DNA of 37,894 nt, from the NCBI GenBank assembly GCA_964565145.1, contig CAZMCZ010000001.1:29025-66918 (forward strand), in the 5' to 3' direction. The notes beneath the pieces are model-generated. The model was not told the DNA's origin and searched no databases. It was given only the letters and a program-made list of their open reading frames with translations. This document shows, in pieces, positions 12,921-17,372 of this stretch. Source of the stretch: an uncultured Pseudobdellovibrionaceae bacterium. GTDB lineage: Bacteria; Patescibacteriota; Minisyncoccia; Moranbacterales; GCA-2747515. Every line of letters starts with the position of its first letter. Positions within the stretch are counted from its first letter, which is position 1. The translations under genes were made by a program, and so were the position numbers.

Positions 12921-14216
12921 ATGAAGAACAACATTTCCTGTGATTATTCCCATGTAGAGGCGTTTAGTGATCCATCATCTGTACGACAGGACATTGTCCA
13001 GAGTGCACAAACGCTCATGGATGGTTCTGGTGCCGGTGCGGCATTTCGCGGATGGCTTACGTTGCCAGAGCAATATGACCGCGAAGAAGATGCACGCATT
13101 CGCGCCGTGGCCCAGAACATCCGTGAGGATGCAGATGTTTTTGTTGTTATTGGCATCGGTGGGTCTTATCTGGGTGCGCGCGGAGCGATTGAAGCTCTAA
13201 AAGGGACGTTCTATAATGAATTGTCGCCTCAAAAACGTCAGGGTCCGCAGATTTTCTTTGCTGGCAATAATCTCAGTGGCACGTACCTTCGTGACATTTT
13301 GACGCTACTGGAAAATAAAAGTGTTTATGTGAATGTGATTTCTAAATCAGGTACGACGCTTGAGCCGGCCGTTGCTTTTCGTCTCATCACAAAAGAGCTT
13401 GCAGTGCGCTATAGCGCTGACGAACTGCGAAAGCGCATTATTGTCACTACAGATGCAACCTCCGGCGCGCTGAAAGACTTGGCAGATAAAAAAGGATATG
13501 AAACATTTGTCGTGCCAGATGATATTGGTGGGCGCTATAGCGTGCTTACGGCCGTCGGACGGTTGCCCCTTGCCGTTGCCGGTATTGATATTGAGGCGAT
13601 GATGCGTGGTGCACGGGATGCTATGAAGCTCTATGATGCGCCCTATGAAGAAAATCCATGTTATCATTATGCGGCGGCACGGACGGCACTCTATCGTGCA
13701 GGATATAAAATTGAAATTTTTACACAGTTTGAGCCGGCGTGGCATTATTTTGCAGAGTGGTGGAAGCAACTTTTCGGGGAGTCAGAGGGCAAGGAGCATA
13801 AAGGCCTCTATCCGTCTTCTCTGGATTTTACAACCGACCTTCACTCTCTGGGGCAATACGTCCAAGAGGGTGAGCGACATCTTTTCAAAACGATTTTGCA
13901 CATTGAGGAAACAAAAGACGCTGTCGTCGTGCCAGATGATGGAGAACATGATGATGGCCTAGAGAATCTTTCCGGGAAGTCCTTTGATGTTTTGAATACT
14001 GCCGCGCAACAGGGGACATTGATTGCGCACGCCGACGGTGCTGTGCCACAAATTGTTCTCTCACTACCACAACAGGACGCCTATTATCTGGGGCAATTGT
14101 TTTTCTTCTTTGAAAAAGCATGCGCTGTGAGCGCGTACGCGTTGGGTGTCAATCCCTTTGATCAACCGGGCGTAGAGGCGTATAAGAAGAACATGTTTCG
14201 TCTTTTGGGCATATAG
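12921..14216 (+). CDS. pgi: glucose-6-phosphate isomerase
   Basis: GIGGSYLGARG, ISKSGTTLEP, GGRYSVLTAVG and GESEGKEHKG motifs. 431 aa. Confidence 0.9.
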   Translation: MKNNISCDYSHVEAFSDPSSVRQDIVQSAQTLMDGSGAGAAFRGWLTLPEQYDREEDARIRAVAQNIREDADVFVVIGIGGSYLGARGAIEALKGTFYNELSPQKRQGPQIFFAGNNLSGTYLRDILTLLENKSVYVNVISKSGTTLEPAVAFRLITKELAVRYSADELRKRIIVTTDATSGALKDLADKKGYETFVVPDDIGGRYSVLTAVGRLPLAVAGIDIEAMMRGARDAMKLYDAPYEENPCYHYAAARTALYRAGYKIEIFTQFEPAWHYFAEWWKQLFGESEGKEHKGLYPSSLDFTTDLHSLGQYVQEGERHLFKTILHIEETKDAVVVPDDGEHDDGLENLSGKSFDVLNTAAQQGTLIAHADGAVPQIVLSLPQQDAYYLGQLFFFFEKACAVSAYALGVNPFDQPGVEAYKKNMFRLLGI

Positions 14217-14312
14217 CTCCTCTATGATGGGCATTTTCTACGCATTTTTCATGTCGTGGTTGTGTTTTTGTTTGTAACACTATCAAAAAGAGCCGGTGCA
14301 GGGTAAACATAA

Positions 14313-14335
14313 AAGTATCATACTTTATCATACTT
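14313..14335 (+). promoter_or_regulatory. candidate operator: tandem 10-bp direct repeat containing a 13-bp palindrome
   Basis: TATCATACTT at 14316-14325 is repeated exactly at 14326-14335. AAGTAT-c-ATACTT at 14313-14325 is a perfect palindrome. The site overlaps -10-like hexamers (TATCAT, CATACT) 29 nt upstream of the RHH gene ATG. Confidence 0.4.
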
Positions 14336-14363
14336 TTATTTTACAAGGGGTGATAAAGGATGT

Positions 14364-15179
14364 ATGATAGATGCATCTTATAACAAACACATGCCATTAC
14401 GTAATCGCATTTCTATCACTCTGCGCAAGGACCTCTTGCAACAAATTGATTATGCAATCCAACAGGGTGACGCACAAAATCGTTCCAATGCCATTGAACA
14501 AGTTTTAATGGAAAAGTTTGGCAATGCACATGCACGCAGAGCCGTCATTCTTGGCGGAGGTTCCGGCGTTGACGTTGATGGAGTGCGGACGTCTGTTCTT
14601 CTCGCAACAGTGGACGGGAAAGTGCTCATTGATCGGCATATTGAGCGTTTAAAAGCTGTTGGCGTTGAGGAAATCATTCTCTCCGTCGGTGCTTTCGGTG
14701 ATGCGGTGCGCTCTGTGGTTGGTGATGGGTCGCGTTATGATATTTCCATTGTCTATTTTGAGCGTGATCACGGCACGGCAAGCGTGTTGCGCAAGGCGCG
14801 GAGCTTACTTAAAGAGACGTTTATCATGCTTAATGGGCACATCATCATTGACGATGTTGACTTTGAAGATATGATTTTGGCGCACAAAAATATGCGCGCG
14901 CTTTGTACGATTGGGTTAACTACGATCGCGCAACCGGGCAATTATGGGCAGGTGAAGATGCGTGGGTCACATGTCGTACAGTACGTAGAGAAACCCGGTG
15001 ACAAAGAAAGCATCTCGCACATCATCAATGCCGGCATCTACATCATTGAGCCGGCAGTTTGTGCTCTTGTGCGACCGGACGAAGCATCTATTGAACAAAA
15101 CATCTTTCCACTTCTGACGCGTAAGGGGATGTTGCATGGGTATCTGTTGGATACGCCTTGGCAACGATATAAAAAATAA
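14364..15179 (+). CDS. ribbon-helix-helix (CopG/NikR-like) domain fused to a sugar-phosphate nucleotidyltransferase-fold domain with a degenerate active-site loop
   Basis: N-terminal RISITLRKDLLQQIDYAIQQGDAQNRSNAIEQVLMEKFG has the RHH pattern. The remainder aligns by eye with NTP_transferase proteins (AVILGGG..., GVEEIILSVG, DGSRYDISIVYFER, GTASVL, LNGHIIID, YGQV, VEKP, INAGIYIIEP). The usual GGxGTRLxPLT..PKP loop is replaced by GGGSGVDVDGVRTSVLL. Confidence 0.78.
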   Translation: MIDASYNKHMPLRNRISITLRKDLLQQIDYAIQQGDAQNRSNAIEQVLMEKFGNAHARRAVILGGGSGVDVDGVRTSVLLATVDGKVLIDRHIERLKAVGVEEIILSVGAFGDAVRSVVGDGSRYDISIVYFERDHGTASVLRKARSLLKETFIMLNGHIIIDDVDFEDMILAHKNMRALCTIGLTTIAQPGNYGQVKMRGSHVVQYVEKPGDKESISHIINAGIYIIEPAVCALVRPDEASIEQNIFPLLTRKGMLHGYLLDTPWQRYKK

Positions 15180-15188
15180 ACAACGCCT

Positions 15189-16274
15189 ATGAAAACGACA
15201 ATGAAAGCGGTTATTCTTGCCGGAGGCTCCGGCACACGACTCTGGCCATTGAGTCGTAAGCAAAAACCAAAGCAGTTTCAAAAAATGACATCGGATCAAA
15301 CGATGTTGCAAGAAACGTATGCGCGACTTGCAAAACATTTTTCGCCGGATGCCATTTACATCTCCACAAATCAGGACTATGTGCAGGAAGTCTCTAAAGA
15401 ACTGCCGGAAATCAATAAACGCAACATCATTGCCGAGCCTCTTGCACGCAATACCGCTCCGGGCATTGCACTTGCCGCGGCAACGATTGCGCAACACCAT
15501 GGCGATGATGCAATGATTGCGGTCTTTCCCGCAGATCATATGATCAAAAACCACGCCGTGCTCTTTCAGGCACTTGATAACGCTGAGGCGTTTCTCACAC
15601 AACAGCCAACATACATCATAACGCTTGGTCTGGCGCCAACTTATCCGGAAACGGGGTATGGTTATATCAAAAAAGGTATGGTGCTTGATAAGCAAAAGCA
15701 GATTTTTGCCGTTGATCGTTTTGTGGAAAAGCCGGACGCAGAAACGGCGCAAAAGTATATCCGTGAAGCATCGTATTATTGGAATGCGGGGATGTTTGTG
15801 TTTGTTGCCGGCGCCATGCTTGCAAAATATCAAAAATACATTCCAAAAACTTATGAATGCATCAAAGAAATTCAAGAGGCGATGGCGACAGATTTTGCAA
15901 CGGACGTTTGTCGTAAGCAGTACGAAAAAACAGATGCGATCAGTGTTGATTATGCGATTATGGAAAATGATTCTCATGTGGCCGTGATACCGATTGCGGA
16001 TCTCGGATGGAGTGATGTGGGGAGTTGGGCGGCGCTAAAGGACGCGCTTGTGGGTGATGGTGATGAGCACTTGGTACAGGGCGAGCATATTGATTTTGAG
16101 AGCACAAACTTGGTCGTGCATGGTGACACCAAGCCCATTGTCACTATCGGATTGAAAGATTTGGTTATTGTGGACACAGAGCATGCGTTATTGGTCTGTG
16201 ATCGTCGTCATGCGCAATTTGTCTCCAGCGTGGTGAAGTCTCTCCAAGACACCAAACATAAAAAAATTATCTAG
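15189..16274 (+). CDS. manC: mannose-1-phosphate guanylyltransferase
   Basis: AVILAGGSGTRLWPLSRKQKPKQF signature. 361 aa with no C-terminal isomerase domain. Confidence 0.85.
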   Translation: MKTTMKAVILAGGSGTRLWPLSRKQKPKQFQKMTSDQTMLQETYARLAKHFSPDAIYISTNQDYVQEVSKELPEINKRNIIAEPLARNTAPGIALAAATIAQHHGDDAMIAVFPADHMIKNHAVLFQALDNAEAFLTQQPTYIITLGLAPTYPETGYGYIKKGMVLDKQKQIFAVDRFVEKPDAETAQKYIREASYYWNAGMFVFVAGAMLAKYQKYIPKTYECIKEIQEAMATDFATDVCRKQYEKTDAISVDYAIMENDSHVAVIPIADLGWSDVGSWAALKDALVGDGDEHLVQGEHIDFESTNLVVHGDTKPIVTIGLKDLVIVDTEHALLVCDRRHAQFVSSVVKSLQDTKHKKII

Positions 16275-16277
16275 TCT

Positions 16278-17372
16278 ATGCCACATATTTACCCTATTGA
16301 TACAACACGAAAGGAGATTTATCAAAAAAAAGTCTGGGGCAATTCCAAAGAACTGGAAATGATTATGGGTCCTCTGCCGGCGTGCTATGCGCAGGAGACG
16401 ATTGGTGAGATTTTTCTCGCATCGACGCATCCGGATGGTCCAAGCGCTTTTGCCGATGGAACGCGTTTTGATACGATGATTGCATCCGAAAAATGCAAGC
16501 GCACTTTCGGGCATGGGGTTTATGGGTATGGAGAATTTCCATTGTTACTCAAGATTTTGAGTGCAACGCAATCACTGTCCATACAAACACACTATGCAAA
16601 TAAGGTAGAGGCCTGGTATGCTCTTTCTGATGGAGAGATGCTTTACGGATTGACGGCCGAAGGTGAGAAAATGGTGGTTCGTGCAGAGGGTCGCAAGACA
16701 TTGGGTGAGCTTTTGCATCGCACGTCTGACGTGGAAACGCTTGCGCGATATTTTAATTACGTCACCTTTAAAAAGGGTGAGGCCTATGTCATCCATGCCG
16801 GCATGGTCCACGCACTGCTCTCGGGGACGGTTTTTGAGCCACAAAAAAATTCCAATCTCACAAATCGCGGTGGTGATTGGGGACGAAATCAGCCGGACCG
16901 CCCGTTGCATTTGAAGGAGTTTTTTGAATCGCTTTATCCTTTTGCTATTACGCCGACGCCAATCAAAAGGGTCGTGTGTGATGATTCGGCCGGCGCAACT
17001 ATGCACTATGTTTTTGCGACAAGCCATTTTGTCGTGCAAGAGCTTCACGTGCGGACGTCCTATGATTTTGCGGGCAGTCGGCATCGTTTTGTCATCGGTT
17101 TTTGCATTGAGGGCATTGTAGAGATCACCCATGGCAAGAGGCATTTTAGCGCCGTTTCCGGAAGTGTTTTTTTGATTCCGGCGGAAGACGCCGTGTGGCA
17201 TCATGCCGGCTCGGGGACAATCCTCTATACATTTGTTGCGCGCCTTCTGGAAGATGTTATTTTACCATTAATCAATCAAGGTATTGCACGTGAGGAAATC
17301 ATTCAACTCGGAGGCGTTATCCCAAAAGAAAACGATCTCTATATTGAGATGAAAGAGCACGGATTGGTGTAG
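16278..17372 (+). CDS. manA: class I mannose-6-phosphate isomerase (cupin)
   Basis: FPLLLKILSATQSLSIQTHY..VEAWY and VIHAGMVHAL match the class I PMI metal-site motifs. It starts 3 nt after the manC stop. Confidence 0.72.
   Translation: MPHIYPIDTTRKEIYQKKVWGNSKELEMIMGPLPACYAQETIGEIFLASTHPDGPSAFADGTRFDTMIASEKCKRTFGHGVYGYGEFPLLLKILSATQSLSIQTHYANKVEAWYALSDGEMLYGLTAEGEKMVVRAEGRKTLGELLHRTSDVETLARYFNYVTFKKGEAYVIHAGMVHALLSGTVFEPQKNSNLTNRGGDWGRNQPDRPLHLKEFFESLYPFAITPTPIKRVVCDDSAGATMHYVFATSHFVVQELHVRTSYDFAGSRHRFVIGFCIEGIVEITHGKRHFSAVSGSVFLIPAEDAVWHHAGSGTILYTFVARLLEDVILPLINQGIAREEIIQLGGVIPKENDLYIEMKEHGLV

Follow-up and report, generated by a model that had tools for sequence, protein, structure and literature searches.

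A ribbon-helix-helix protein with a catalytically degenerate nucleotidyltransferase domain, a probable autoregulator of GDP-mannose genes in the candidate phyla radiation

To our knowledge, gene regulation in bacteria of the candidate phyla radiation (CPR) and in DPANN archaea has hardly been studied. Recognisable transcription factors are few in these organisms, which cannot be cultured on their own. Here we report on a gene at positions 14364-15179 of a stretch of 37,894 nucleotides (the window; GenBank assembly GCA_964565145.1, contig CAZMCZ010000001.1, positions 29,025 to 66,918), which encodes a ribbon-helix-helix (RHH) head fused to a nucleotidyltransferase fold that has lost its catalytic residues. 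The source genome assembly comprises about 825-826 kb and is 96% complete, and its nearest relatives are labelled Candidatus Moranbacteria or Moraniibacteriota, which belong to the CPR. An earlier note on this DNA had described the fusion, the gaps of 9 nt to manC and 3 nt from there to manA, and a product that would act as a one-component autoregulator sensing a sugar metabolite. The reading frame (271 aa) and both gaps were confirmed, and the regulatory reading gains support from the RHH head, the dead enzyme fold and a conserved operator. The features of the locus are as follows.

14364-15179, plus strand: gene of the RHH-pseudo-nucleotidyltransferase fusion, 271 aa in the listed form, likely true start ATG 14391 (262 aa); open reading frame, Pfam and NCBIfam matches, N-termini of homologues
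14400-14519, plus strand: NikR-type RHH DNA-binding domain, residues 13-52, reading strand R15-I-S17-I-T19; Pfam, NCBIfam, family profile, AlphaFold model
14535-15167, plus strand: nucleotidyltransferase fold like that of GDP-mannose pyrophosphorylase (GMPP) without catalytic residues, presumed ligand sensor, residues 58-268; PF00483, GMPP profile matches, Foldseek, residue comparison
14553-14603, plus strand: degenerate glycine-rich loop (G-loop) GGGSGVDVDGVRTSVLL, residues 64-80 (VTC1 T12 to V69, R13 to D70, K23 to V78); alignments
14316-14335, plus strand: operator sites 1 and 2, exact 10-bp tandem of TATCATACTT, copies at 14316-14325 and 14326-14335; repeat search, genome scan, orthologues
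14313-14325, no strand: 13-bp palindrome AAGTATCATACTT, centred on the C of site 1; read from the sequence
14362-14369, minus strand: operator site 3, inverted copy GTATGATA, covering the -10 box and ATG 14364 of the listed form; 8 of 8 positions complementary to sites 1 and 2
14340-14368, plus strand: probable promoter, TTTACA (14340-14345), 17-nt spacer, TATGAT (14363-14368); 10 of 12 consensus matches, layout of relatives
12921-14216, plus strand: pgi, upstream neighbour, 147-nt gap to the fusion reading frame
15189-16274, plus strand: manC, mannose-1-phosphate guanylyltransferase; NTP_transferase 3.8e-49, ManC beta-helix 4.7e-15, TIGR01479 8e-100
16278-17372, plus strand: manA, class I phosphomannose isomerase-like, last gene of the presumed operon; PMI_typeI_cat 6e-10, MPI_cupin 8.5e-7, TIGR00218 2.5e-24

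The N-terminal part, which had been predicted to be an RHH domain, was compared with domain models both as a single sequence and together with its relatives. Alone, it matched Pfam RHH_1 over residues 15-50 (E = 0.0078, 16.6 bits; range 16.6-20.2 bits, cut-off 20.5) and NCBIfam NikR models over residues 14-57 (1.3e-4); a weak HicB-like antitoxin match also appeared in the Pfam search. A profile built from the 49-residue N-terminal segments of 30 members of the family described below reached the RHH domain of E. coli NikR (residues 2-46) with E = 6e-9 and CopG with 6.5e-3, RHH_1 was matched by 23 of the 30 segments, and a profile search of PDB sequences yielded E. coli NikR at 8e-5. The prediction therefore falls short of the Pfam threshold on the single sequence and becomes solid once relatives are included. 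Because the family profile, the RHH_1 matches and the NikR-model matches agree, we consider the RHH assignment sound and specifically NikR-like. The NikR sequence QRVTITLDDDLLETLD...NRSEAIRDIL corresponds to R-x-R-[IL]-T-I-T-L...L..[ILV]D...NRS[HN]AIE in the family, and the reading strand is R15-I-S17-I-T19 in the window protein, R-[IL]-T-I-T in most relatives and RVTITL in NikR. An AlphaFold model (single chain, 14-sequence alignment, pLDDT 86, pTM 0.80) shows an extended segment at 13-20, helices at 22-33 and 40-52, and then a Rossmann-like domain.

That domain is, as previously proposed, a sugar-1-phosphate nucleotidyltransferase fold, and GDP-mannose pyrophosphorylases are its closest known counterparts. 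Pfam NTP_transferase (PF00483) covers residues 60-260 with E = 1e-17, the NCBIfam matches of the C-terminal part (mannose-1-phosphate guanylyltransferase and archaeal GlmU-type models) are all far below their cut-offs, and the profile search of PDB sequences reached GMPP structures at about 1e-30. In sequence and fold the domain comes nearest to human GMPPB, Arabidopsis VTC1 and Leishmania GDP-MP; GMPPB, VTC1 and related GDP-mannose pyrophosphorylases were the best Foldseek matches (probability 1.00, query-normalised TM about 0.7). The published contacts of VTC1 with GDP-mannose and pyrophosphate (PMC9168903) served as the reference map and were transferred by means of an alignment that included a plant GMPP of the same numbering, with the following result.

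Pyrophosphate-site and catalytically critical residues: VTC1 T12, R13, K23, D111, K196 and D219 correspond to V69, D70, V78, H159, Q245 and R268; all six replaced
Guanine-N1 contact: VTC1 D80 corresponds to Arg; replaced
Guanine O6 backbone contact: VTC1 G85; kept
Mannose contacts: VTC1 G146 and N173; kept
Other pocket residues: VTC1 N109, Y145, E162, K163, E195 and W217; kept

The G-loop is degenerate as first reported, its Thr-Arg pair and the following Lys being lost, and the claimed loss of catalytic residues extends further than had been seen, to six mapped positions. The glycines corresponding to G9 and G11 of VTC1 are retained. Among the 14 closest homologues the mean column identity is 60%, and the pocket residues that are kept are invariant or nearly so; because of this conservation among orthologues and the retained pocket, the domain is not a decaying pseudogene. 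It is under constraint, yet it cannot plausibly catalyse nucleotidyl transfer. The changes D111H and D219R affect the aspartates that flank the pyrophosphate and suggest that a phosphorylated ligand may be bound independently of metal. The ManC/GMP beta-helix (PF22640), present in the product of 15189-16274, has no match in the fusion protein, which ends at the W-Q-R motif.

The exact 10-bp tandem at 14316-14335 and the 13-bp palindrome at 14313-14325, which had been taken for the operator, are both present; the third, inverted copy at 14362-14369 had been missed, and the set comprises three sites. The tandem places TCATAC hexamers at 14318-14323 and 14328-14333, 10 bp apart, and the palindrome lies within a larger inverted repeat with arms at 14306-14322 and 14326-14342. 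Distances of 34 bp to site 2 and 44 bp to site 1 place site 3 at approximately whole helical turns from both. TTTACA, an imperfect -35 box, together with the 17-nt spacer and TATGAT forms a probable promoter from which transcription would start near 14375. The pattern ATCATAC-N3-ATCATAC occurs once in the genome of about 825 kb, at 14316-14335, and versions with one or two mismatches are as frequent as in shuffled sequence; the bare hexamer TCATAC is not enriched genome-wide (401 observed vs 403 expected). Orthologues of other genera carry the same tandem upstream (TCATACTTAATCATAC, TATCATACACTATCATAC and similar). In four relatives a TTGACA-like -35 box lies 6 nt past the second CATAC of the tandem, and relatives have an inverted GTATGA, equivalent to site 3, in or beside the -10 box.

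These positions bear on the start codon, which is likely to be ATG 14391 rather than 14364. ATG 14364 is part of the operator half-site GTATGA and of the probable -10 box, and with that box at 14363-14368 and a start near 14375 it would sit upstream of the transcript start. The N-termini of homologues, which begin 2-4 residues ahead of the R-x-R-[IL]-T-I-T strand, also favour ATG 14391; an SD-like AAGGGGTGAT precedes 14364 and would fit the less likely longer form of 271 aa. The ATG inside the half-site (14360-14369) hands gene callers an in-frame 'MI...' start, and the closest homologue (P0002, 73% identical) likewise begins with 'MI', followed by a non-conserved extension of nine residues. 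Since an ATG occurs within the half-site, N-terminal extensions annotated in the degenerate clade described below may be operator artefacts.

Outside the window, at G000:C16:7865-7885 (L103 2866-2886), a TCATAC pair with 11-bp spacing (ATCATACTTCTATCATAC) was found on the probable start (MIIGVNASFL...) of a minus-strand gene, which was tentatively read as glycosyltransferase-like. This pair, which is not supported by conservation, may have arisen by chance or mark another target of the regulator.

The fusion proved to be widespread. A back-translated pattern search with one genome per species recovered 244 fusion loci, of which the best 80, plus the window, were analysed. The CPR bins with the fusion comprise Moran-, Parcu-, Pacei-, Uhr-, Buchanan-, Falkow-, Doudna-, Gottesman-, Kerfeld- and Wirthbacteria and bins labelled Saccharibacteria, and the DPANN archaea comprise Altiarchaeota, Aenigm-, Nano-, Nanohalo-, Parv- and Woesearchaeota and ARMAN-4. 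The common architecture, which the window protein fits, is a NikR-like RHH (R-x-R-[IL]-T-I-T ... NRS[HN]AIE) followed by a nucleotidyltransferase domain (about 220 aa), and the gene is preceded by TCATAC repeats. The window protein is thus no singular case but a derived, decayed branch of a large CPR/DPANN family, and the functional reading of the earlier note is supported. Seven bins (L023, L054, L057, L060, L070, L083, L033) are labelled Pseudobdellovibrionaceae, Gammaproteobacteria or Methanosarcinales, and the tree nests their proteins in CPR/DPANN; such labels on bins with a CPR/DPANN-type gene are probably wrong and were not relied on.

The operator accompanies the family, a co-occurrence that the earlier note had proposed to check. 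TCATAC or GTATGA occurs at least twice within 200 nt upstream in 44 of the 80 family loci (0.54 expected), and 34 adjacent hexamer pairs in these upstream regions share one orientation and have a spacing of exactly 10 bp. Exact TCATAC-N4-TCATAC tandems number 41 in 837 kb of family-locus DNA vs about 0.1 expected, as calculated for 12 fixed bases on both strands. Of these, 34 are found in the 260 nt ahead of the fusion gene, and the remaining seven precede same-strand genes just ahead of it, which are likely operon starts. In most members the tandem is located 30-40 nt ahead of the start codon. Co-occurrence was assessed in 41 relatives, eight with the fusion and 33 without: five of the eight have an exact tandem beside the fusion operon and the other three have degenerate or inverted versions, whereas the genomes without the fusion contain four exact tandems in three of 33, which equals the rate of a reversed-pattern control. 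Extra exact tandems in relatives, inside coding genes at G012:C4 and G017:C20 and between unrelated genes at G002:C136, were counted as background, their number being that of the reversed-pattern control.

The repeat might instead be promoter sequence or a product of chance, with the RHH-like segment serving as an oligomerisation or protein-binding tail, for example antitoxin-like, and having no operator role. TATCAT does resemble a -10 hexamer, and the sub-threshold RHH score of the single sequence and the weak HicB-like match would fit such a tail. We consider this highly improbable, as the hexamer recurs at 10-bp spacing in Bacteria and Archaea with their different promoter types and far above expectation, is not enriched genome-wide, and is the half-site of the closest RHH homologue, NikR; in addition, no toxin-like partner gene is adjacent. 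A toxin-antitoxin reading was likewise rejected, the fold being of the GMPP type and not a minimal nucleotidyltransferase, and a partner gene being absent.

Within the family, the catalytic residues are kept to differing degrees. The complete set (GGxGTRxRP, K, D, D) is present in most archaeal members, and most CPR members have L/V/I-K in place of T-R and keep K23, D111 and D219. Catalytic loss is confined to one clade of 11 rows (window and L020-L029), which is monophyletic with 100/100 support and has a long stem. Decay is graded also within this clade: L025 and L026 keep K23 and D111, L029 keeps D111, and the inner Moranbacteria group has lost all residues tested. The same clade has manC as the next gene in 9 of 11 loci, vs 0 of 70 other family loci, where the next gene encodes PGK, GAPDH, PGM/PMM, DUF6206, PfkB, GlpX FBPase or a ROK kinase, and where genes for PFK, GlmS, IMPase/FBPase and TrmB regulators are found nearby.

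A DNA-binding protein that still makes a nucleotide sugar through an unconventional active site, comparable to the bifunctional PutA, BirA and NadR, is an alternative suggested by those relatives, especially archaeal ones, that keep GGxGTRxRP...K...D...D and adjoin PGM/PMM genes, and by the fold and the glycines G9 and G11 that the window protein retains. For the window protein itself such a dual function is very doubtful, given that all six mapped residues are replaced, including both flanking aspartates, and that a canonical manC 9 nt downstream would make a second enzyme redundant. Relatives with the full set beside PGM/PMM genes, above all those of archaea, indicate that the ancestral protein was probably an active enzyme with an RHH head. 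In the simplest history consistent with the sequences, an RHH-tagged enzyme would have dropped catalysis where a canonical ManC sits downstream, leaving a sensor.

Taken together, we consider it likely, judging from the sequences, that the fusion protein is a ligand-sensing one-component autorepressor of the regulator-manC-manA operon. We infer that it binds DNA, that it represses rather than activates, and that it responds to a ligand. The NikR-type head would dimerise and read TCATAC-containing sites through the strand R-I-S-I-T; RHH dimers would sit on the two tandem sites, which are one helical turn apart and closely precede the -35 box, and on the inverted site at the -10 box, and would in this way block RNA polymerase. 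The C-terminal domain, presumably descended from a GDP-mannose-pyrophosphorylase-like sugar-1-phosphate nucleotidyltransferase, would make no nucleotide sugar, having lost its pyrophosphate-binding and critical residues, and would bind a mannose-pathway metabolite, either a sugar phosphate or an NDP-sugar, in the former active site with the sugar-side pocket residues it has kept. Ligand binding would shift operator occupancy and thereby tune transcription of regulator, manC and manA. GDP-mannose as co-repressor, which would amount to end-product feedback, is a tentative choice; mannose-1-phosphate or mannose-6-phosphate as inducer would be our next guess, and sugar phosphates stay candidate ligands because the base-contact residue has changed.

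A ligand-dependent activator or dual regulator would be the converse arrangement, with the tandem recruiting RNA polymerase (cf. H. pylori NikR at ureA, and AmrZ) and the -10 site limiting expression. In the four relatives 6 nt separate the tandem from the -35 box, a placement compatible with activation, and the -35 box of the window is imperfect; however, the third site coincides with the -10 box, the tandem mostly lies 30-40 nt before the start codon, where a promoter or transcript start is expected, and the majority of RHH proteins, E. coli NikR among them, act as repressors. We therefore regard activation as unlikely and retain autorepression as the preferred reading.

Several points weigh against autorepression by a sugar-sensing protein. 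The single-sequence RHH score is below the Pfam cut-off, and the window protein has Ser where the reading strand of NikR has its first Thr. The guanine-N1-binding acid (VTC1 D80) is Arg, so it is not certain that the ligand is a guanine nucleotide. Given the likeness of TATCAT to a -10 hexamer, the repeat may in part belong to the promoter; sites ahead of a -35 box can serve activation too. A search of the own genome for second targets with up to two mismatches to ATCATAC-N3-ATCATAC found no other convincing site, the contexts being unremarkable. Finally, the link between catalytic loss and manC represents a single evolutionary event in one clade; it is a scenario and no statistical result.

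The product of manC has an intact loop (GGSGTRLWPLS), and the gene is probably co-transcribed with the fusion gene. The manA product is above the Pfam cut-offs (PMI_typeI_cat, MPI_cupin) and below that of NCBIfam manA/TIGR00218 (86 vs 116 bits). In relatives manC is followed by an NAD-epimerase/GMD-like gene, and a close counterpart of the window manA was not found there, so that the third operon gene is not conserved. In one related genus (L022 and L024) a HAD sugar-phosphatase-like gene precedes the fusion gene in the same operon and a UDP-GlcNAc 2-epimerase-like gene follows manC; further upstream lie a 233-242-aa protein without assigned function and, in L024, a weak NUDIX-like protein. 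TCATAC tandems stand before the HAD gene and the genes further upstream (L022, G012:C14, 3275 and 5092; L024, 2737).

Elsewhere in the family, an extra gene of the RHH-nucleotidyltransferase or nucleotidyltransferase cluster adjoins the fusion gene or lies within three genes of it in several loci of CPR and DPANN (L030, L036, L040, L043, L072, L079, L084-L086, L088, L093), which suggests paralogous pairs of regulators or enzymes. DUF6206, an uncharacterised protein of about 330 aa, is encoded directly after the fusion gene in many CPR members (L037, L056, L059, L063, L065, L069, L070, L078, L087, L090, L091, L099), often with PFK, PfkB and TrmB genes nearby; it is a candidate sugar-metabolism enzyme under the operator of the fusion family.

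On a broader scale, the odds seem to us about even that these proteins form one transcription-factor family of CPR and DPANN, with the operator word (TATCATACnn)x2 kept in both domains, that governs sugar-phosphate and central carbon genes and records how an enzyme-repressor turned step by step into a protein that only senses a metabolite. The neighbours behind the metabolic part of this view are PGK, GAPDH, PFK, GlpX, PGM/PMM, ROK and PfkB kinases, GlmS and manC; the steps run from the full archaeal set through the T-R to L/V/I-K change of most CPR members to the manC-linked clade, of which the inner members have none of the pyrophosphate-site and catalytic residues tested. Full-text searches and searches by Pfam domain names turned up no account of an RHH-nucleotidyltransferase fusion or of a comparable regulator in CPR or DPANN, and the two domains occurred together in the literature in toxin-antitoxin contexts only. 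The domain combination, the operator and the cross-domain spread appear undescribed; the general kind, a one-component regulator with an RHH head and an enzyme-derived ligand domain, is already known. The sharply defined, predictable operator and the obvious class of candidate ligands provide a directly testable entry to CPR/DPANN regulation, regulons could be predicted from the operator word across hundreds of genomes of uncultured organisms, and the family offers a clean case of enzyme-to-sensor evolution.

Among known systems, GMPPA is a GMPP paralogue without catalytic activity; it binds GDP-mannose and restrains GMPPB (PMC11228364; PMC9168903). GMPPA (human GMPPA-GMPPB complex, PDB 7d72) resembles the fusion protein in being a nucleotidyltransferase-fold pseudoenzyme of the same GMPP branch, and its feedback on GDP-mannose synthesis would parallel the proposed co-repression by GDP-mannose. 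GMPPA has a beta-helix and acts allosterically via protein contacts, whereas the fusion protein has no beta-helix, carries a DNA-binding head and would act at the level of transcription. Both GMPPB and GMPPA chains are among its top fold and sequence matches.

One-component regulators derived from enzymes include NrtR (Nudix-like sensor and winged helix-turn-helix), PutA (RHH and proline catabolic enzymes), BirA and NadR. Like the fusion protein, they join a DNA-binding domain to an enzyme or former enzyme domain that senses a metabolite of its own pathway, and PutA shares the RHH head; the fold (sugar-1-phosphate nucleotidyltransferase), the pathway and the taxa (CPR/DPANN) are different. PutA, BirA and NadR remain active enzymes, unlike the proposed dead sensor. 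MetJ, CopG and the omega repressor are RHH proteins whose dimers bind direct or inverted tandem repeats cooperatively, overlapping the promoter, and several dimers on short promoter-overlapping repeats are also what we propose here. Their repeats are 8-bp met boxes or 7-bp heptads vs 10 bp in the fusion operator, and they have no fused enzyme-derived sensor.

The closest RHH sequence is that of NikR (E. coli, PDB 1q5v/2hzv; P. horikoshii, 2bj1), with which the family shares the strand R-V-T-I-T-L in near-identical form, the helix start N-R-S-x-A-I and the layout of an RHH head with a ligand-binding C-terminal domain. The operator of E. coli NikR is GTATGA-N16-TCATAC (PMC7055735); its hexamer is identical to that of the fusion family, which fits the near-identical reading strands. 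The half-sites of NikR are inverted and 22 bp apart, whereas the fusion operator is a direct tandem at 10 bp with one inverted site. NikR senses a metal through an ACT-like nickel-binding tetramerisation domain; the C-terminal 210 residues of the fusion protein have the NTP_transferase fold, NikR models cover only its residues 14-57, with no ACT-like nickel domain found, and its signal is presumed to be a sugar metabolite. A DNA-reading head nearly the same as that of NikR would thus be coupled to a completely different signal.

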